Shown here piece after piece: positions 36,655-49,687 of a stretch of DNA of 64,000 nucleotides. Both the position numbers and the translations under genes were made by a program. The stretch lies in contig PFEF01000006.1 in assembly GCA_002793915.1 (NCBI GenBank), forward strand, positions 24,697 through 88,696. The letters are read 5' to 3'. The stretch comes from Candidatus Ryanbacteria bacterium CG10_big_fil_rev_8_21_14_0_10_43_42. Its GTDB lineage: Bacteria > Patescibacteriota > Minisyncoccia > Ryanbacterales > 2-02-FULL-48-12. Numbering within the stretch: position 1 is the stretch's first letter; every line of letters begins with the position of its first letter. The notes below the pieces were generated by a model that did not search any database, was not told where the DNA came from, and saw nothing but the letters and a program-made list of their open reading frames with translations.

Positions 36655-37014
36655 ATGGCATCCACTTTGGTTGTGAGCAATGCTCATAGGAATTTTGTAC
36701 CGAAGGGACAGTGCTTGGATAACGGTACCTTGCTTTGGATGAATATCGGTGCCTTGCAGGAAGATGTGAAGAGAGAGCTTCCGAAATATATTGCGCTTAA
36801 GCTTATTTCCTTAAATGGTATCAGGCCGGGTGCTAATCAGATCAAATTGGAGTTTGATCCGTCGGTTACGCCGAAAGAAGAGCGAATAGTTCGGCGTACG
36901 CTCTGTTGTTTACCCAAAGAACATACAAATGGAGGTGAGTTGTCCCATAAAAGCAGTGCTAATAGAAAATTTTCCAAAGAGCCTTGTGTAAAGCGGTCGC
37001 CACGACCTCGATAG
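36655..37014 (+). CDS. hypothetical protein (119 aa)
   Basis: SD agaagaggaggtttgtATG; terminator at 37020-37046. No family recognised. Confidence 0.45.
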   Translation: MASTLVVSNAHRNFVPKGQCLDNGTLLWMNIGALQEDVKRELPKYIALKLISLNGIRPGANQIKLEFDPSVTPKEERIVRRTLCCLPKEHTNGGELSHKSSANRKFSKEPCVKRSPRPR

Positions 37015-37019
37015 TATGC

Positions 37020-37046
37020 ATTACCCGGTAACGGGTATTTTTTTTT
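37020..37046 (+). terminator. rho-independent terminator
   Basis: tacccggtaacgggta + ttttttttt. Confidence 0.75.
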
Positions 37047-37086
37047 ATAGCTTTATTGTTTTTTGAGAAAAAGATATTATTGTCGT

Positions 37087-38013
37087 ATGGATAAAAAGAA
37101 AACATACGATGCTGGTATTGGCTGGGTGAGTTCGGTGGAGAATGTGTTCCTTTCATTTTTAAAAAAAGAATTACGAAAGAAAAAATATTCATTTGATGAA
37201 GTCACTTATGAAAACCTACGTCATCGATATGATGACATTAAAAACGACCGATACGCATATCGTGTTTTTATAGATCGCGCCTCATTTGATCACCCGGCAT
37301 ATTTTCTATTTGCCGATCTTGTACAAAAGAAAGGTGCGTATGTAGTTAATAATCCGGATGCGGTAATTGCGTGGGGAAGTAAGACGGCATTATACGGCGC
37401 TTTATGTAATGCCGGGCTTCCACTGCCAAGGGTATTCCTTCTTCCTGCGCGTCCACCGGCAAAAAAAGAACTTATTCACATACCGAAAGCATTGGGCGTG
37501 CCGTTTATTTTGAAGCCGGCGTATGGCGGTTTGGTGGATGATGTTCTTCTTCGTGCCCGTACGGTTGATGATATTATTACATTTATGGAGGATAACGGTA
37601 CGGATGAAACCCTTGCACAGGAGTATGTTGTACCAACGGTAGTAAGAAAGAAGACAGCATGGTTTAGACCGCTTTATGTATGTGGGGAAGTTATTCCTCT
37701 GTGGTGGGATCCGCTTTCCCATTTTTATCAACCATTTGGACGTTCGGCGGAAGAGCGTGATATTGCAAAAGATTTGAAGAATATGCTTTGTCGCATTCAT
37801 GATATTACTGGTCTTGATTTGTTTACAACGGAAGTTGCTATAGATGAGGGGGGTGAGTATAAAATTATTGATTATGCAAATCACCCAATCGATTTAAATT
37901 CACAAGAGAACGCATCCGATGCACTGCCGGAAGATATTTTGGAAGATGTGGCGCGTTGTATTGCGGTATATATCGGAAAAATTAAGGCACACGGGAATGT
38001 CATACGAGAATAA
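37087..38013 (+). CDS. ATP-grasp fold protein (RimK/glutathione-synthetase-like ligase)
   Basis: ATP-grasp signatures (KPAYGGLVDDV, EYVVPTV..., DLFTTEVAIDEGGEYKIIDYAN). ORF-track start 37063 is a TTG; first ATG is 37087. Confidence 0.65.
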   Translation: MDKKKTYDAGIGWVSSVENVFLSFLKKELRKKKYSFDEVTYENLRHRYDDIKNDRYAYRVFIDRASFDHPAYFLFADLVQKKGAYVVNNPDAVIAWGSKTALYGALCNAGLPLPRVFLLPARPPAKKELIHIPKALGVPFILKPAYGGLVDDVLLRARTVDDIITFMEDNGTDETLAQEYVVPTVVRKKTAWFRPLYVCGEVIPLWWDPLSHFYQPFGRSAEERDIAKDLKNMLCRIHDITGLDLFTTEVAIDEGGEYKIIDYANHPIDLNSQENASDALPEDILEDVARCIAVYIGKIKAHGNVIRE

Positions 38014-38114
38014 TTTTCGTGATGTAAGAAAAAGGTAATGGGGAAGATGTTATTAACAGTTTAGTATTTTTTTAATACTGGCGTTTGTATGTTCTTATCC
38101 GTATACTTAACCGT

Positions 38115-38432
38115 ATGGAAAGTATTGTAAAAGCTGATATATTCTTTTTTGTAACCACCATCGCGCTTGTTCTCTTTTCTGTTGCGTTTTTAATACTACT
38201 TTACTATATCATTCGTATAATAAGGAATGCGGCATATATTTCCCGTCTTATTGTATCTGAAACGGAGCAAATTAAGAGTGATGTTAGCGAGGCGCGTGCG
38301 TATGTACGGGAGGAGGCCGTTAAGATGGGCTATTTCATAGGGTTTATAAAAGCGCTTATGAAAGAACCGAAGACAGCTTTGGCGGCAAAGAAGAAACGAG
38401 CAACCAAACCAAAAAAAGACTCGGTAGAGTAG
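38115..38432 (+). CDS. small membrane-anchored coiled-coil protein
   Basis: One N-terminal TM (FFFVTTIALVLFSVAFLILLYYII), then charged helical region and Lys-rich tail. Start uncertain (38085 or 38115). Confidence 0.45.
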   Translation: MESIVKADIFFFVTTIALVLFSVAFLILLYYIIRIIRNAAYISRLIVSETEQIKSDVSEARAYVREEAVKMGYFIGFIKALMKEPKTALAAKKKRATKPKKDSVE

Positions 38433-38484
38433 GTGTTGTAATGGAATATATAAATTTTATACGATAATCTAATTTCATAGATAT

Positions 38485-38853
38485 ATGGCTAAAAAATCAA
38501 CAACTGAAGGAGTGGGAATCGGGCTTGCGGCATTAGCGGCCGCCGCGGCTGGTGCATATTTTTTGTACGGAAAGAATGGTGTGAAAAATAGAAAAAAAGT
38601 AAAAAGTTGGATGTTTAAGATGCGTGCCGAGGTGCAGGACAATATAGAAAAAATGCAGGACGTAAGTAAAGAATCGTACAACAGAGTGGTGGATGAAACG
38701 GCTCGTCATTATAGCGCATTAAAGCAGGTGGATCGAAAAGAACTGGATCAGATGGTACGGGAATTAAAAGGACACTGGAAGAGTATTTCATCTCAAGTGA
38801 TGAAAAACATAAAAACGGTAAAACCTGCAAAAAAGAAAACTGCGAAGAAATAA
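38485..38853 (+). CDS. YtxH-like stress protein (Gly-zipper TM plus coiled coil)
   Basis: GVGIGLAALAAAAAGAYFLYG N-terminal Gly-zipper helix then helical region. Strong terminator follows. Confidence 0.6.
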   Translation: MAKKSTTEGVGIGLAALAAAAAGAYFLYGKNGVKNRKKVKSWMFKMRAEVQDNIEKMQDVSKESYNRVVDETARHYSALKQVDRKELDQMVRELKGHWKSISSQVMKNIKTVKPAKKKTAKK

Positions 38854-43690: not shown

Positions 43691-44185
43691 CTATATCTCT
43701 GCGAGATTATGCTCGGGTATATTCACGCGAATTTTTTTTCCGATTAAATTTATCAAAATGGCCATGTAATCGTAAGGAGAGTTCTTTTTATTTTTTACTC
43801 TTTCAATTACCTCTCCTATAATATTCTTAAAAAGACCATCGACAACAAGAACATTTCCCGACCACTGCTTCTCAAGATCTATTATTCCGCCAGTTTCTCG
43901 CTCCTTGAGTTCGGTAATGATAAGTTTATCAATGGGCAGAATCTCACCGGTCGTTCCCACTATATATTTTACGCCTGGTACATTGTTTGTGGTGTGTATG
44001 TGTTCTTTATTAATACACACAAATAGATATTGCGGAAAGAGAGGGGTTTTTATACGTCCTTTTCTTTGTATCTTTTGATATCGCATGGGAAGGTAGATAT
44101 CATCTTTAGGAAATATGCTTTCCAAATAACTCTTTACGGAACGTTCTTTTGCCGCATTGGTCATTACCACATACCATTCCTTCAT
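43691..44185 (-). CDS. NusG-family paralog (NGN + KOW; RfaH/UpxY/LoaP-like specialised antiterminator)
   Basis: MKEWYVVMTNAAKERSVKSYLES (NGN start), PQYLFVCI, C-terminal KOW (GNVLVVDGLFKNIIGEVIERV). 164 aa. Monocistronic on the minus strand, ending at a bidirectional terminator. Confidence 0.8.
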   Translation of the reverse strand: MKEWYVVMTNAAKERSVKSYLESIFPKDDIYLPMRYQKIQRKGRIKTPLFPQYLFVCINKEHIHTTNNVPGVKYIVGTTGEILPIDKLIITELKERETGGIIDLEKQWSGNVLVVDGLFKNIIGEVIERVKNKKNSPYDYMAILINLIGKKIRVNIPEHNLAEI

Positions 44186-44503: not shown

Positions 44504-44551
44504 GGCTCATAATCTTTTTATAAATTTTTTAATATAAAAAGGTTATGAGCC
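44504..44551. repeat. 19-bp near-perfect AT-rich inverted repeat (hairpin/palindrome) in the DAHPS leader
   Basis: ggctcataatctttttata - aattttttaa - tataaaaaggttatgagcc (18/19 complementary). Confidence 0.6.
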
Positions 44552-44607: not shown

Positions 44608-44721
44608 ATGTGGTTCGAAGATCAGGAAGAATGGTGGCGCAACGCATATACGCCATTGTATAGTCCGAAAAAAAACAACGAAGACCATGAAGATCAAGAT
44701 GGTAAAAATCTTGCATGGTAA
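44608..44721 (+). CDS. upstream ORF / candidate leader peptide (37 aa, Trp-rich)
   Basis: SD gggaggaacgagttATG. MWFEDQEEWWRNAYTPLYSPKKNNEDHEDQDGKNLAW (4 Trp including tandem WW). Ends 27 nt before the DAHP synthase start. Confidence 0.35.
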   Translation: MWFEDQEEWWRNAYTPLYSPKKNNEDHEDQDGKNLAW

Positions 44722-44748: not shown

Positions 44749-45882
44749 ATGCTTGTTAAGATGTATGGACATGCATCGTCGTCGGAAATTACGGCAATCG
44801 AGGAAAAGCTGCACGGTTTGGGGTATACAACCGGCAAAATGGTCGGTGAGGAAATCACCCTCATTGGTGTCTACGGCGATATCACCCGGCTGCCAACTGG
44901 CGAGATTCAAGAGATGGCTGGTGTAGACCGCCTGATCCCAATCTCGCGCGCCTATAAACGGGTCGCCCAAAAAGGGGTGCCCGGAGCACTTATCCATCAA
45001 ACGGTTCGCATTGGCAGAGTTGAAGTGGGCGGCGATGCATTGAGTATAATCGCCGGTCCTTGTTCGGTTGAGAGTGAGGCCCAGATTATGGAAGCGGCAT
45101 TTTTTGTTAAAGAGTCGGGAGCAAAAGCGCTTCGGGGTGGAGTGGTAAAATATCGCTCAAGTCCATACAGTGGTTGGGAAGGCATTGGTTCAAGCTCTGA
45201 AGAAGCCCTGCGGAATGGCTTACGGCTGATTGTGAAAGCCGGGCGTGCCTTTGATCTGCCAACCGTTGTTGAGGTGCTGGATGCGGCTGATGTGTCGATC
45301 TATGAAGATATGGGGGTGGACTGTCTGCAAGTTGGCGAACCGAACGCCAAAAACCAGTCTCTGCTCAATCGTCTACGTGACACCCAGCTCCCGGTCATCC
45401 ACAAACGCGGTAATTCCTTAGATATCGAAGCGTATCTCTTGTGGGTTGAACGCGTTATGGCAGCGGGCAAAGAAAATGTCATCCTCTGTGAGCGGGGGAT
45501 TGTGAGTTCAAATAAATATACCCGCAATACGCTGGATATGGGTGGTATTGCCGCATTTCATTATCAGCTGTCGTGTTTGCCTGTGGCTATTGATGCCTCG
45601 CATGGCAGTGGTATTCGTGATCTGGTCCATCCGCTAACCTTGGCTGGAATTATGGCCGGTGCCTCAGTTGTTCTCGTTGAATCCCACCCCAATCCGCTGA
45701 TTGCCAAGTCGGATGGATTTCAAGGCTTATTTCCCGAACAGCTCTCCCGCTTAGTCGCTGCCTGCCAGCAGGTGTGGGAACTTCGTAAGCGCATCGAGCC
45801 CTTGTACGTCCCGAGTGCACTACTTGAACAGCAGTATGAAGAGCGGATTGGCCATGATAAAAAACGGTTCTTCGATGTTTAA
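44749..45882 (+). CDS. 3-deoxy-7-phosphoheptulonate (DAHP) synthase, type I-beta with N-terminal ferredoxin-like regulatory domain
   Basis: SIIAGPCSVES, KYRSSPYS, ILCERGI, DASHGSG match I-beta DAHPS/KDO8PS. N-terminal ~65 aa regulatory domain as in Thermotoga DAHPS. Visibly higher G+C and CTG/GCC/GGC/ATC codon preference than neighbours. Confidence 0.9.
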   Translation: MLVKMYGHASSSEITAIEEKLHGLGYTTGKMVGEEITLIGVYGDITRLPTGEIQEMAGVDRLIPISRAYKRVAQKGVPGALIHQTVRIGRVEVGGDALSIIAGPCSVESEAQIMEAAFFVKESGAKALRGGVVKYRSSPYSGWEGIGSSSEEALRNGLRLIVKAGRAFDLPTVVEVLDAADVSIYEDMGVDCLQVGEPNAKNQSLLNRLRDTQLPVIHKRGNSLDIEAYLLWVERVMAAGKENVILCERGIVSSNKYTRNTLDMGGIAAFHYQLSCLPVAIDASHGSGIRDLVHPLTLAGIMAGASVVLVESHPNPLIAKSDGFQGLFPEQLSRLVAACQQVWELRKRIEPLYVPSALLEQQYEERIGHDKKRFFDV

Positions 45883-45893
45883 AAAGGAGGAAT

Positions 45894-46109
45894 ATGGCCG
45901 TGCACTATGATAAAAATGGATTTCCGTGTAATGGCAGATTGAAAAAGATATGCTCTGCATTAAGTTATTGTTGTACATGCAAAATGAGCATTATAAACGC
46001 GGTGCTCTTTGTACTTTCTCCGGAGCGCATATTGTTCCTTAAAATGCGCAGAGAAATTTGTAATTCTTTCCACGAAAACGGCTCTTTGGATTTAGGAGCC
46101 ATTTGTTAA
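45894..46109 (+). CDS. small Cys-rich ORF (71 aa) co-transcribed with DAHP synthase
   Basis: SD aaaaaggaggaatATG right after the DAHPS stop. 7 Cys (CNGRLKKICSALSYCCTCK...). Terminator at 46115-46147. AT-rich, unlike the DAHPS gene. Confidence 0.4.
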   Translation: MAVHYDKNGFPCNGRLKKICSALSYCCTCKMSIINAVLFVLSPERILFLKMRREICNSFHENGSLDLGAIC

Positions 46110-46114
46110 GAAGG

Positions 46115-46147
46115 TAAGGGGGTTATTAAATAATAACCCCTTTTTTC
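46115..46147 (+). terminator. rho-independent terminator ending the DAHPS transcription unit
   Basis: aagggggttattaaataataaccccttttttc: 9-bp stem + U-run. Confidence 0.75.
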
Positions 46148-46472
46148 TTAAAAACTTACACTATACCGTTATTAACAGCCTTTATTGACAAAAGATCGTT
46201 TTTTGTTAGCATGAAGGAATGTTAAAGGGAGATAATATTTCCGATACGAAAAAGACCGCGCTTCTCTTTGGAGATGTAATTATGTGCCTTACGAAAAGGT
46301 AGCAGAGTTTGTTTTAAATGATTTATAGTAACAAGCTCTGCTTCACGGCAGAGTATTTTTGTATAATGTATGGATTGTTTGTGGTTTGCGATGTGTCTGC
46401 TTGATAGTGGGCATATGAAGATCATAAGCCGGCTCGTTGACAATTTAAACTCTTATAGGGAGGAGGTTTAGT

Positions 46473-46664
46473 ATGCCCAAGAATAGAAAAGATGAAGATT
46501 CTCATCTGGTGCACGGAGGTGACCCGTTTGTCATTACTCCGGTAATGGGAGATACATATGATAGAGCGGAGATTGAAGAAAATCCTCATCTTGAGGATAA
46601 CTTACGCCGCTTAGAGAAAGAGCGTAAAAAGTTACGAAGGGAGGCGAGTAGTCATGGAAAATAA
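46473..46664 (+). CDS. hypothetical protein A (63 aa, acidic N-terminus + basic coiled-coil tail)
   Basis: Strong SD tatagggaggaggtttagtATG. ...LVHGGDPFVITPVMGDTYDRAEIEENPHLEDNLRRLEKERKKLRREA. Overlaps ORF B by 11 nt. Confidence 0.5.
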   Translation: MPKNRKDEDSHLVHGGDPFVITPVMGDTYDRAEIEENPHLEDNLRRLEKERKKLRREASSHGK

Positions 46665-47106
46665 TCTTTCTGATCTTTTACAGCGTGTGGTGGAAGAGTG
46701 TTCTCAAGATATGGCAGACGCAAACCAACGGCATAAAGAGCGTCAGGATAAGAGAGTATGTTTTGTTTATACAAATTGGAGTGTTGATAGAGCAAATGGG
46801 ATAGAGGTGGTGATAGCGAGTGTGGGCATGATTATCAACGGAGTGCGATATGAGGGGATGGCAACTTCTTTTGATGCTGTTCGGCCGGTAAGAGATGTCT
46901 TAATTGAGTCCATTTTATTGGCTGCTTTTAAATCAGATATTATAGCGGGAGAGAATATTCCTTCATTTAAAAGCTGTTTTCAGTCGGGAGTTGTGACACT
47001 TTTTGTGGAGGATGATTCATTTTCTGTTGAAGTTTCCGATGAGCGCGATGACCTTGCTTCTATGGAGGTTGCACGACGATATATTGCTTCACGATTGCCA
47101 TCGTGA
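46654..47106 (+). CDS. hypothetical protein B (150 aa)
   Basis: SD gaagggaggcgagtagtcATG; translationally coupled to A. No family recognised. Confidence 0.55.
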   Translation: MENNLSDLLQRVVEECSQDMADANQRHKERQDKRVCFVYTNWSVDRANGIEVVIASVGMIINGVRYEGMATSFDAVRPVRDVLIESILLAAFKSDIIAGENIPSFKSCFQSGVVTLFVEDDSFSVEVSDERDDLASMEVARRYIASRLPS

Positions 47107-47158
47107 AGATTTATGGGGATGCTTACACGCACCCCCATTTTCTAAGGAGGAGTGCGAT

Positions 47159-47524
47159 ATGCTCGATATGGTATTTAAACTACGTCAAGAAAATGAGCGC
47201 GTATATATGGAAATTACGCTTAAGATGAACGACATTTCGGCAACGGAAATATACGAAGGTGATGATTCTTCGTGTCGGCTTGAGGAGAGAGCGGTGACGC
47301 TTATGTTGCAGGCGGCTCAAACGATCGGGATTATGCCACAAACTCAGTTTTCTGTTTCTGTAACGGGAGGGACGGAAGTTCGGAACGGTGTTTTGGTAAC
47401 GATACATGCTGAAAGGAAAATGACGGGATTCACGGATTGTGTTTATAGCACACCGTTCACAGCGGCGCAGGCAACAAAAGATATTCTTGAGCAATTACAG
47501 AATAACGAAGTTAAAGCGGCGTAG
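47159..47524 (+). CDS. hypothetical protein C (121 aa), possible distant paralog of B
   Basis: SD taaggaggagtgcgatATG. ORF-track start 47003 lacks an SD and overlaps B. Shares a ...TGG.EV.NG.L... beta-hairpin-like motif with B. 12-bp-stem terminator follows. Confidence 0.55.
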   Translation: MLDMVFKLRQENERVYMEITLKMNDISATEIYEGDDSSCRLEERAVTLMLQAAQTIGIMPQTQFSVSVTGGTEVRNGVLVTIHAERKMTGFTDCVYSTPFTAAQATKDILEQLQNNEVKAA

Positions 47525-47529
47525 ATGTA

Positions 47530-47569
47530 AACCCCAGAATTTCTATTGGAAATTTTGGGGTTCTTTTTT
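47530..47569 (+). terminator. rho-independent terminator after small ORFs A-B-C
   Basis: aaccccagaatttctattggaaattttggggttctttttt: 12-bp stem (one G-U) + U-run. Confidence 0.8.
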
Positions 47570-47638
47570 AAGAAGATTGATTTTTAGTTTACATGGCATT
47601 ATAGTGGAACGAAGATTACCTGATAAGGAGGAGAATGT

Positions 47639-47965
47639 ATGCAAGGAGTATTTGTTATGATTACATACATTCCGAAAAGGGCACTTGATGAAGCATTGTC
47701 GCGAGAGGGTGAAGACCCTCCTACGCAAGAAGAGGCTCTTTCGTTTTTACGGAAGGTTATGTCGTTTAGGGAAATCCCTTCGATTCTGAATAACCCTCCC
47801 TTAATCGGACGTCTTCTGGACACATTTTATGGGAGACATGCCCGTGCCGGTAATGCTTTTGAAAGGATGTCAATTGTCGAACGAGTGAGAGGTGAAAAAT
47901 TGGAGATTACAGGAAAGAGGGTTAGGGAAAAAAATAAGAAAAAAGAAATACAAAGACGCGTATAA
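47639..47965 (+). CDS. hypothetical protein D (108 aa), basic C-terminus
   Basis: SD taaggaggagaatgtATG; own terminator at 47964-47988. C-terminal RVRGEKLEITGKRVREKNKKKEIQRRV. Confidence 0.5.
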   Translation: MQGVFVMITYIPKRALDEALSREGEDPPTQEEALSFLRKVMSFREIPSILNNPPLIGRLLDTFYGRHARAGNAFERMSIVERVRGEKLEITGKRVREKNKKKEIQRRV

Positions 47966-47988
47966 GAGCATTACGCTCTTTTTTTTGT
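47964..47988 (+). terminator. rho-independent terminator after ORF D
   Basis: agagcattacgctct + tttttttt. Confidence 0.65.
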
Positions 47989-48040: not shown

Positions 48041-49687
48041 ATGACCAGAAGTGAACTTCTTCAAAAATTAAAAGAAAAACGAAAGGAGATTGCCGAGCGT
48101 GAAGGCAAGGAGCTTTTTATGGTATTTCAAAATAAAGCTCTGGAAGAAACAGTAAAAGCAATGCCGCAAACACGGGAAGATTTAAAATTGGTAAAAGGAT
48201 GGGGAAAGGTAAAAATATCACGGTATGGAGACGAAATTCTTTCTATTTTCAAGCAGGGAAACGGGAAACATGAGGATACTTATGCAACAGGCGGATTATT
48301 TAATAATCCAATACCTGCCGCCGAATCTCCCTCGGGCGGAGAAGGCAAGCAGTCTCATGATAACGCCGTATTATCGGTTTCGGAATTTATCGAAGTTGTT
48401 AATATTACGCTTTCACGATTAGGTTTGGTGCGTGTGCAGGGAGAAATAAGCGAGATGCAGATGCGGGGAGCGGCGGTATATTTTACGTTAAAAGATACAT
48501 CGGGTGAGGATGCGATAGTAAAATGTTTACTTTGGAAATGGCAATTTGAACAGCAGTATGATTATTTGGAGGATGGTTTGGAAATTATTATAGAGGGAGT
48601 GCCGGATGTATTTGTAAAATATGGAACATTTAGCGTAAAGGTAAGTCGCGTAGAGCCGGTAGGGGAAGGTGCTCTTAGAAAAGCATTCGAAGCGCTTAAG
48701 AAAAAATTTGAAATGGCCGGATATTTTGATGAAGCGCGCAAGCGTCCGCTTCCGCGCATTATACAACGTATAGGAGTTGTTACTTCCGCTTCCGGAGAAG
48801 CAATTAATGATTTTAGGCGCAATATCGGAGACTATGGTTTGGAAATATGTATGGTAGATGTGCGCGTGGAAGGAGTATACGCCGAGGATTCCATCGTGAA
48901 AGGAATACAATGGTTAAATACTCATCATGCCGATTTGGACGTACTTGTTCTTATACGCGGAGGCGGTGGTCTTGAAAATTTGAAGGCATTTAATTCAGAG
49001 CGAGTTGCTGAAGCCGTTCTTGGTTCGCGTTTGCCGGTAATAACGGGTATTGGGCATGAGCGCGATGATACCATTGCGGGTTTTATAGCGGACATCAATT
49101 GCTCTACGCCAACAGCGGTTGCGGTGTATATTCGGCACATACGGGAAGATCTCATAGGGGAGGTAAATGAAAAAGTGGAACGGCTGATTCGTTTATTTGA
49201 TGTTATATACGAAACAGCACTGCGTTCATTGCATGAGCGGAAGACGGGACTTATTATTTCGTATACCCACATTCTTTCGCGGTATCGGCATGACATCGCA
49301 TCACATACGCGTGCCCTACAGACGGGGCTGTTTCAGATATTTAGCGGATTTCGTCTTTTAACGGAACAGTTTCGTTCATCATTTCACCGTTATGAATCTA
49401 TTTTACGGGAATATTATCGAACGGTAGAAATAAACGCCGTAAAAGGGGTTCGTATTCTTGAACGGAGTATGCAGGAATACGAAAAACGTATTTCTGTTAC
49501 CGAAACCGCGCTTGCTTCTCTGGATCCGGCGGCGCCTTTAAAGCGCGGATATAGTATTACATACGGATCTGACGGCCGCGTGCTCAAGAATGCAAAGAAT
49601 GTTACCATAGGGGAGAGAATCAGCGTACATTTGTACGAAGGGAATATTGGTGCGCGGATAGAAGAAAATATTCAGCCGGAAAAATAA
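48041..49687 (+). CDS. xseA: exodeoxyribonuclease VII large subunit with N-terminal HRDC-like domain
   Basis: Residues ~1-75 (LLQKLKEKRKEIAEREGKELFMVFQNKALEETVKAMPQTREDLKLVKGWGKVKISRYGDEILSIF) fit the HRDC pattern. OB fold and XseA catalytic core follow (VRVQGEIS..., IGVVTSASGEA, ITGIGHERD). Confidence 0.85.
   Translation: MTRSELLQKLKEKRKEIAEREGKELFMVFQNKALEETVKAMPQTREDLKLVKGWGKVKISRYGDEILSIFKQGNGKHEDTYATGGLFNNPIPAAESPSGGEGKQSHDNAVLSVSEFIEVVNITLSRLGLVRVQGEISEMQMRGAAVYFTLKDTSGEDAIVKCLLWKWQFEQQYDYLEDGLEIIIEGVPDVFVKYGTFSVKVSRVEPVGEGALRKAFEALKKKFEMAGYFDEARKRPLPRIIQRIGVVTSASGEAINDFRRNIGDYGLEICMVDVRVEGVYAEDSIVKGIQWLNTHHADLDVLVLIRGGGGLENLKAFNSERVAEAVLGSRLPVITGIGHERDDTIAGFIADINCSTPTAVAVYIRHIREDLIGEVNEKVERLIRLFDVIYETALRSLHERKTGLIISYTHILSRYRHDIASHTRALQTGLFQIFSGFRLLTEQFRSSFHRYESILREYYRTVEINAVKGVRILERSMQEYEKRISVTETALASLDPAAPLKRGYSITYGSDGRVLKNAKNVTIGERISVHLYEGNIGARIEENIQPEK

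Follow-up and report, generated by a model that had tools for sequence, protein, structure and literature searches.

Small-protein genes of narrow distribution behind a conserved structured leader in a Candidatus Ryanbacteria chromosome

Here, we describe a group of four small genes and the structured noncoding leader in front of them, located in a 64,000-nucleotide (nt) stretch of the chromosome of Candidatus Ryanbacteria bacterium CG10_big_fil_rev_8_21_14_0_10_43_42 (contig PFEF01000006.1; this whole stretch is referred to as the window). All four open reading frames (ORFs) lie on the forward strand: ORF A (46473-46664) encodes 63 amino acids (aa), ORF B (46654-47106) 150 aa, ORF C (47159-47524) 121 aa (118 aa in the NCBI call), and ORF D (47639-47965) 108 aa. 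Their products are deposited in GenBank as PJE64357 to PJE64360, each labelled "hypothetical". The leader, approximately 250 nt in length (46219-46472), directly precedes ORF A and is the best-conserved part of the locus. An original prediction, made from the letters of the sequence, had reported the four small ORFs (63, 150, 121, and 108 aa) with Shine-Dalgarno (SD) sites, an 11-nt overlap between A and B, and terminators, and all of these features were recovered here. The SD sites are strong and stand 6 to 9 nt from the ATG in all four cases, with the sequences GGGAGGAGG for A (6 nt upstream of the start), GGGAGG for B, and AAGGAGGAG for C and D (in D, again 6 nt upstream of the start).

A codon log-odds measure trained on 29 long ORFs from the window gives the annotated frames scores of 0.22 (A), 0.25 (B), 0.24 (C), and 0.11 (D), compared to a mean of 0.23 and a range of 0.05 to 0.38 for those 29 long genes. 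The score of D is low, yet within the range of real genes, and the five alternative frames are negative for each of the four ORFs; poor coding statistics, against which the original prediction had cautioned, were thus not encountered. The GC content of the region matches its surroundings. Because SD sites, frame-specific codon scores, and terminators coincide, we regard A, B, C, and D as real genes with native codon usage. Their layout supports the description of tightly organized, self-contained small genes that would carry regulation of their own. The encoded proteins differ in character: A is very hydrophilic (grand average of hydropathy, -1.4), its N-terminal part being acidic and its C-terminal tail basic and helix-like, B and C are acidic (isoelectric points [pI] of 4.6 and 4.7), and D is basic (pI 10.1) with a tail rich in Lys and Arg. 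A 13-nt exact direct repeat, GGAGTGCGATATG, occurs both within B (46840-46852) and across the SD and start codon of C (47149-47161). We rejected it as a trace of duplication, given a chance expectation of about 0.1 in the 3.9-kb region and dissimilar flanks.

The sequence features support a division of the region into two transcription units. The best promoter in the region, a sigma-70-like element at 46185-46212 on the forward strand (TTGACA, a 16-nt spacer, and TGnTAGCAT), matches the consensus at 10 of 12 positions and has an extended -10 element. It would serve a first unit consisting of the leader, A, B, and C, closed by a predicted intrinsic terminator at 47530-47572 with a 15-bp stem (47530-47562) followed by CTTTTTT. 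Just downstream lies a promoter-like site for D at 47577-47605 (TTGATT, a 17-nt spacer, and TATAGT; 9/12, by consensus match only), and the putative terminator of D at 47964-47988 begins with a hairpin (47964-47980) that shares bases with the stop codon and precedes TTTTTTTT. Since C and D are separated by a strong terminator and a promoter-like site, we assign D to a unit of its own. The operon-like cluster of four that had been proposed therefore holds for A, B, and C, which form a tight unit, but not for D. Terminator-like hairpins with T-runs are frequent throughout, with 8 in the region compared to 2.0 +/- 1.6 in shuffled sequences, and at least four of them fall within 45986-46354.

Relatives of these genes are extremely scarce. 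Profile scans of A to D against Pfam, NCBIfam, PADLOC, and PHROGs gave noise only, the best match in PADLOC-DB 2.0 being one of PDC-M40C to B alone (E = 0.029, 12 bits). A k-mer-prefiltered HMMER search of 5.8 billion clustered proteins returned only self matches for B, C, and D, and a full HMMER scan of 1.84 billion representatives, made with one concatenated B+C+D+A query, produced a single nonself protein, P0009 (137 aa), which matches C only, end to end (E = 1.7e-7). Pairwise comparison of C and P0009 shows 30% identity over the full length (BLASTP E = 5e-19; shuffle z = 27). Nothing was found in PDB sequence searches with the single proteins and a C profile, in tblastn searches of phage and plasmid collections, in a synteny search around HRDC-XseA in GTDB genomes, or in searches of metagenome and viral contigs with a C-family alignment and of genome and viral contigs with leader DNA patterns; the contig collections scanned do not contain the window's own contig or that of P0009, which makes their negatives weak. 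Two leader-pattern matches in metagenome contigs were rejected as chance, lying inside a MutS gene and an ankyrin-repeat gene. Over 20 kb, two independent assemblies (JGI and ENA contigs) show 100% identity to the window and therefore offer no population variation from which a ratio of nonsynonymous to synonymous substitution could be estimated. In the searches made, B and D are thus unique to this genome. The earlier statement that the proteins belong to no recognizable family is upheld across Pfam, NCBIfam, PADLOC, PHROGs, PDB sequences, phages, plasmids, and protein databases, and the confident profile matches to metabolic or ribosomal families that would speak for a different identity did not appear.

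This orphan status is common in this genome, because approximately 20 of the approximately 75 genes called in the window are without a Pfam match. Another run of four consecutive genes without Pfam matches (119, 308, 115, and 122 aa), followed by a DUF3467 gene, is located at 36655-38853 on the forward strand, so clusters of uncharacterized small genes recur here. The same applies to codon usage. AGA and AGG together make up 16 of the 39 Arg codons in A to D, compared to 101 of 817 in long genes (Fisher p = 1.4e-5), and the Arg codon bias noticed in the original prediction is therefore real; however, it is not specific, as 14 other window genes without Pfam matches use these codons at 33 of 94 positions (p = 0.56 versus A to D). 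The bias marks a class of small uncharacterized genes, not this cluster, and we rejected it as a sign of foreign origin.

P0009 is carried on a 1364-bp JGI metagenome contig, L003, which represents the only related locus known to us. Its order is the 3' end of a prephenate dehydratase gene (PF00800, E = 6e-26), a noncoding stretch of approximately 300 nt, a 62-aa ORF, the C homologue, and, directly 3' of the latter, a hairpin with a T-run (L003 1302-1327) that corresponds to the terminator after C. The promoter also has a counterpart, TTGACA-16-TAGTAT at L003 409-436, in which both hexamers and the TG are kept. The 62-aa ORF, which comes after the conserved leader and its SD, shares its position, size, and hydrophilic, charged character with A and is a positional equivalent of A only. 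The called start ATG of the C homologue abuts the stop codon of this ORF. An alternative in-frame ATG 24 nt downstream (L003 903) is preceded by GGAGGA at 6 nt and aligns better with the N terminus of C, and translational coupling in L003 is uncertain for this reason. L003 has no B, and the contig ends before a possible D position. The conserved core therefore comprises the leader, a hydrophilic ORF of approximately 62 aa in the A position, and C, and B was either gained in this lineage or lost in that of L003. This arrangement contradicts the notion of a single four-gene module, and the co-occurrence of A, B, and C in other genomes, proposed as a check, fails in the one locus where it can be assessed.

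In a nucleotide comparison of L003 with the window, only the leader gives a significant match (69.6% over 135 nt, E = 1.4e-4). With a mean column identity of 72 to 81% in MAFFT alignments of the two loci, it surpasses every ORF of the locus in conservation. Indels of 3, 8, 5, and 4 nt in the alignment argue against coding, and the leader is for that reason considered noncoding. It folds more stably than shuffled sequences in both loci (z-scores of -3.2 in the window and -3.0 in L003). The segments conserved with L003 are the promoter, 46302-46313, a terminator hairpin, a second long hairpin (hairpin 2), and CGTTnACAATTT just 5' of the SD.

Between the putative promoter and the first ORF, we observe a predicted intrinsic terminator and an alternative hairpin that would exclude it. 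The terminator, or candidate attenuator, was found by a terminator scan at 46335-46360 on the forward strand (GCTCTGCT-TCAC-GGCAGAGT, then ATTTTT), and all 8 of its pairs are kept in L003, two of them through one-sided, wobble-compatible changes. In the candidate antiterminator at 46302-46341, GCAGAGTTTGTT (46302-46313) pairs with AACAAGCTCTGC (46330-46341), forming a 12-bp stem that is present in the minimum free energy fold of the window and excludes the terminator there; the L003 equivalent is a TAGCAGA/TCTGCTA pairing. The two hairpins are mutually exclusive because the 3' arm of the antiterminator overlaps the 5' arm of the terminator. Hairpin 2 (46377-46429), predicted by RNAfold in both loci, is long and conserved and lies approximately 30 nt 5' of the SD of A, with a lower stem GTTTGTGGTTT/AGATCATAAGC and a G-U-rich apical stem.

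When the 30 pairs of the terminator and hairpin 2 are counted in the two-sequence alignment, 94.9% of cells are paired, compared to 33 to 48% when partners are slid by 1 to 3 columns. Eight pairs carry one-sided changes, all of them wobble compatible, and one pair carries a two-sided, compensatory change; five of the one-sided changes and the compensatory one belong to the apical stem of hairpin 2. As this G-U-rich stem forms only in the plus-strand RNA, an RNA element is favored over a DNA operator.

No Rfam family matches the leader, either in gathering mode or at E <= 10, and a covariance model of the element found no second copy in the window. Likewise, no recognized sensor (known aptamer, T-box, or leader peptide with regulatory codons) emerged from the Rfam scans or from comparison of the upstream ORFs (uORFs) in the two leaders. 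These uORFs encode MCLTKR* (window 46282-46302, forward strand) and MIINIAER* (L003 about 502-528), and both end on an aligned TAG that directly adjoins the candidate antiterminator at its 5' arm. The two peptides bear no relation to each other and have no common regulatory codons, the SD spacing in L003 is poor, and the arrangement may be due to chance. Two further candidates were rejected: an RfaH ops element, of which only the GGTAG core matches and the key G is lost in L003, and an integron-cassette origin of the hairpins, which on inspection are canonical terminators with T-runs, accompanied by neither attC core sites nor an integrase. The leader thus resembles terminator/antiterminator attenuators and riboswitch expression platforms (trp and pheA leaders, T-box, and LoaP/RfaH-type NusG targets) in having mutually exclusive hairpins 5' of the first ORF, at 46302-46341 and 46335-46360, both also kept in L003. 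It differs from these known systems in having no Rfam family, conserved sensor domain, or ops element.

For protein C, we obtained an AlphaFold2 (AF2) model with its single homologue, P0009, as the alignment (predicted local distance difference test [pLDDT], 75.8; predicted template modeling score [pTM], 0.72). The model shows a beta-beta-beta-alpha unit occurring twice, with strands at 2-11, 14-23, and 26-35 and a helix at 41-56, followed by strands at 64-69, 79-84, and 87-92 and a helix at 99-116. The top Foldseek match in the PDB is 3f6g/3f6h, the Ile-bound regulatory domain of Leptospira citramalate synthase (LiCMS), at E = 9e-3, a probability of 0.99, a template modeling (TM) score of 0.46 to 0.50, and 18 to 19% identity over the full length. 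Over the four chains, 118 to 125 columns are aligned, with TM scores of 0.43 to 0.50 and probabilities of 0.96 to 0.99 for the best three chains and 0.80 for the fourth. In the structure papers on LiCMS and MtIPMS, the solved regulatory domain is reportedly made of two beta-beta-beta-alpha units. Matches of the model to dsRBD and PUR structures remain below a TM score of 0.35, and matches in BFVD are low-TM orfans only. A dodecin- or AroH-like fold, to which C had originally been compared, was not recovered, as there is no Pfam match and neither fold is among the 50 best Foldseek PDB matches listed.

In isopropylmalate and citramalate synthases, the allosteric Leu/Ile site resides in the PF08502 (LeuA_dimer) domain (PMC9860122), and a domain of this type constitutes an autonomous, dimerizing, Ile-binding module that folds on its own (PMC13381585). 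C is modeled with the same topology and size (approximately 120 aa); however, it is free-standing, whereas the LeuA/CimA domain forms the C terminus of a synthase, and it shows no sequence or profile similarity to that domain. We therefore describe the likeness of C to the LeuA/CimA regulatory domain as a weak, model-based resemblance, not as membership.

Protein B is less informative. Its single-sequence AF2 model is poor (pLDDT 51.8), with the order alpha, beta-beta-beta-alpha, beta-beta-alpha, and Foldseek matches of such a model to the PDB are not meaningful. The idea that B and C are distant paralogs sharing a beta-hairpin motif does not rise above chance, whether by BLASTP (E = 0.6), by shuffling (z = 0.39), or by hhalign (probability 0.1%). 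What the two proteins share is a similar secondary-structure order alone, taken from the low-confidence model of B.

The neighborhood of the four genes is, judged by gene content, an ordinary housekeeping chromosome of Candidatus Ryanbacteria within the Parcubacteria of the candidate phyla radiation (CPR). In order, we find genes for TGT, TruB, a thioredoxin/DsbA-like protein, a NusG paralog, and 3-deoxy-D-arabino-heptulosonate 7-phosphate (DAHP) synthase, followed by A to D and then by an HRDC-XseA fusion, XseB, a Na/Ca exchanger, RpoB, and RpoC. Farther upstream, the window carries Suf, thymidylate, and pentose-phosphate genes. No mobile-element or defense-island signature is present in this neighborhood, and the comparison with phages and plasmids was likewise negative. 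In the exonuclease VII large subunit (48041-49687, forward strand), an N-terminal HRDC domain (PF00570, E = 6e-17) precedes the OB fold and the XseA core. The NusG-family protein (164 aa; 43691-44185, reverse strand), divergent from the DAHP synthase gene, scores highest against RfaH (56 bits) and UpxY (50), ahead of LoaP (37) and housekeeping NusG (36.5), all below the curated cutoffs, and is probably a specialized, RfaH/UpxY-like NusG paralog.

DAHP synthase (44749-45882, forward strand) carries a ferredoxin-like regulatory domain at its N terminus. The 64 kb contain no other aromatic-pathway gene, and the GC content of this one, 0.51 to 0.53, compares to 0.43 for the window; the gene is unusual for a CPR genome and may have been acquired horizontally. 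It is preceded by a 37-aa ORF, MWFEDQEEWWRNAYTPLYSPKKNNEDHEDQDGKNLAW (44608-44721, forward strand), with a GGGAGG SD, ending 27 nt before the DAHP synthase start. This ORF is a gene call in the ENA contig and encodes four Trp (including a WW pair), one Phe, and two Tyr residues. It looks like an aromatic-rich leader peptide before the first aromatic-pathway enzyme, although the sequence after it contains no obvious terminator (fold z = -1.6). A near-perfect 19-nt inverted repeat, GGCTCATAATCTTTTTATA / TATAAAAAGGTTATGAGCC (44504-44551, forward strand), is located in the AT-rich, divergent intergenic region that separates this ORF from the NusG paralog. On the other side of DAHP synthase, approximately 300 nt separate its stop codon from the promoter of the first unit (45883-46184, forward strand). 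This stretch contains three terminator-like hairpins (45986, 46080, and 46116) and an ORF of 69 to 71 aa (45894-46109) that is a gene call in one assembly only. It may be a remnant of lost genes; L003 has prephenate dehydratase at this position.

As the best overall explanation of these data, we tentatively propose, at a little short of an even chance, that the region holds two units of lineage-restricted genes for cytoplasmic small proteins, the first of them controlled by attenuation in its leader and encoding a regulatory protein, C. The organizational side of this proposal, that is, the reality and architecture of the genes, their orphan status, the layout of leader, A, and C, and the RNA pairing, is well supported. 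The functional side, comprising the attenuation and the role of C as a ligand- or partner-binding regulator coexpressed with A, is what we infer from that organization, and taken by itself it is doubtful. The sigma-70-type promoter at 46185-46212 would drive transcription of the structured leader of about 250 nt, followed by A, B, C, and the strong terminator, with B presumably coupled translationally to A through their overlap and C translated from its own SD. In the leader RNA, either the intrinsic terminator or the more stable upstream antiterminator would form, both using the same CTCTGC segment. Because they compete for this segment, expression of the first unit would most likely be set by premature termination (attenuation) at the leader terminator. 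C would act as a small ligand- or partner-binding regulatory protein, as opposed to an enzyme or a toxin, A would be its coexpressed partner, and D, with its own promoter-like site and terminator, would be an unrelated basic orphan protein. The regulatory-module reading offered in the original prediction is compatible with this proposal, if unproven.

Several observations weigh against the proposal. The 5' part of the leader (46219-46295), in which a sensor would be expected to lie, is weakly conserved, and with two loci only, a shuffle control for covariation is powerless, so the pairing counts are supportive but not conclusive. A and the 62-aa ORF of L003 show no sequence similarity (E = 0.26; z = 0.2 to 0.6). 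In the model of C, the first repeat is confident and the second is of low confidence, and the fold match itself is weak (E = 9e-3, TM about 0.5, rmsd 5.6 Å). Neither C nor P0009 matches PF08502 in Pfam at E <= 1, and the C profile finds nothing among PDB sequences. Finally, the placement of both loci next to aromatic-pathway genes may be plain synteny.

An unlikely but serious alternative is that the four genes have no common function and occupy a hypervariable slot of fast-evolving or recent, individually dispensable orphans, the apparent module being a matter of gene packing. Much of what we describe above would fit: some 20 of the 75 or so window genes are without a Pfam match, a second four-gene run exists at 36655-38853, AGA/AGG-rich Arg usage is common to these genes, A, B, and D have no sequence-level homologue in searches of 15 billion proteins, and B is absent from the only related locus. 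The genes also resemble the orphan genes of CPR (Patescibacteria) genomes in their short proteins, very narrow lineage, atypical Arg codons, and sites among core genes. However, plain orphans would not be expected to keep the leader, the A-position ORF, C, and the terminator together in a second, divergent locus where C is at 30% identity, and this retention argues for function. The visible constraint on the leader, together with codon statistics and SD sites typical of expressed genes, also speaks against a mere slot.

It is improbable that the noncoding segment is the real functional element and the small ORFs secondary cargo. The segment could then be a small RNA (sRNA) ending at the 46335-46360 terminator, since a promoter, approximately 140 nt, and a terminator constitute the anatomy of an sRNA gene, or it could be a site at which the RfaH/UpxY-like NusG paralog (43691-44185) brings about read-through of the terminators between DAHP synthase and A. 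The conservation of the leader, higher than that of every ORF in the locus, would suit both variants, and the second would draw on a specialized NusG paralog encoded two genes away (RfaH 56 bits, UpxY 50, and NusG 36.5, below curated cutoffs) and on the four or more terminator-like hairpins in 45986-46354. Conservation nevertheless runs past the terminator and through hairpin 2 to the SD, as in an mRNA leader, and the element has neither an Rfam match nor a second copy in the window. As for the NusG variant, no ops-like element is present beyond GGTAG, whose key G is not kept in L003, and L003 is too short to show a NusG paralog nearby.

Returning to the proposed leader-controlled unit, we also considered a more ambitious form of it, which we regard as highly doubtful. 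In this form, the leader (150 to 250 nt) would be a new cis-regulatory RNA, either an attenuator or a site for a protein such as the NusG paralog, controlling a new two-protein family confined to Ryanbacteria-like CPR bacteria, and C would be a free-standing amino-acid sensor with the fold of the LeuA regulatory domain, tied to the adjoining aromatic-pathway genes. Both loci lie immediately 3' of an aromatic amino-acid pathway gene, DAHP synthase in the window and prephenate dehydratase in L003, and this shared adjacency, which also counts in favor of the main proposal, is suggestive, though synteny may account for it.

Least probable of all is that the first unit is a toxin-antitoxin (TA)-like or immunity pair in which A, small, largely disordered, and labile, would neutralize C and/or B: the small, tightly linked or overlapping genes flanked by a single promoter and a single terminator, the small hydrophilic gene leading, their extremely patchy distribution and fast divergence, and the acidity of B and C, shared with many immunity proteins, recall type II TA systems, but toxin, antitoxin, and defense profiles give nothing beyond noise at E <= 1, A has no recognizable DNA-binding domain in Pfam, NCBIfam, or PDB sequence searches, C (pI 4.7) models as regulatory-domain-like and not as a known toxin fold, what precedes A is an extended structured leader containing a terminator, as opposed to a promoter palindrome or operator, there is no mobile-element or defense-island context, and no upstream toxin-domain gene requires an immunity protein. 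Type II TA systems further differ in that here both conserved partners (the A-position protein and C) are acidic or neutral, the regulation would be leader based, the setting is a housekeeping chromosome, and no recognized toxin or antitoxin family or fold appears, the model of B being uninformative. The suggestion of a TA or phage-defense module is accordingly not borne out by the PADLOC, Pfam, and NCBIfam scans, the housekeeping neighbors, or the comparison with phages and plasmids.

The main present value of these results is negative and calibrating, in that the cluster is not a hidden TA or defense system, and its "unusual" codons and missing homologues are typical of this genome's numerous orphan genes. 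CPR genomes commonly contain small orphan genes. What merits real interest here is the structured leader, conserved together with the A-C arrangement and known from two loci so far. To our knowledge, almost nothing has been established experimentally about transcription attenuation or small-protein function in CPR bacteria, and if the leader, A, and C do work as a regulatory module, they would contribute a free-standing form of an allosteric amino-acid-binding fold and offer a small, tractable case of lineage-specific gene regulation in these organisms.

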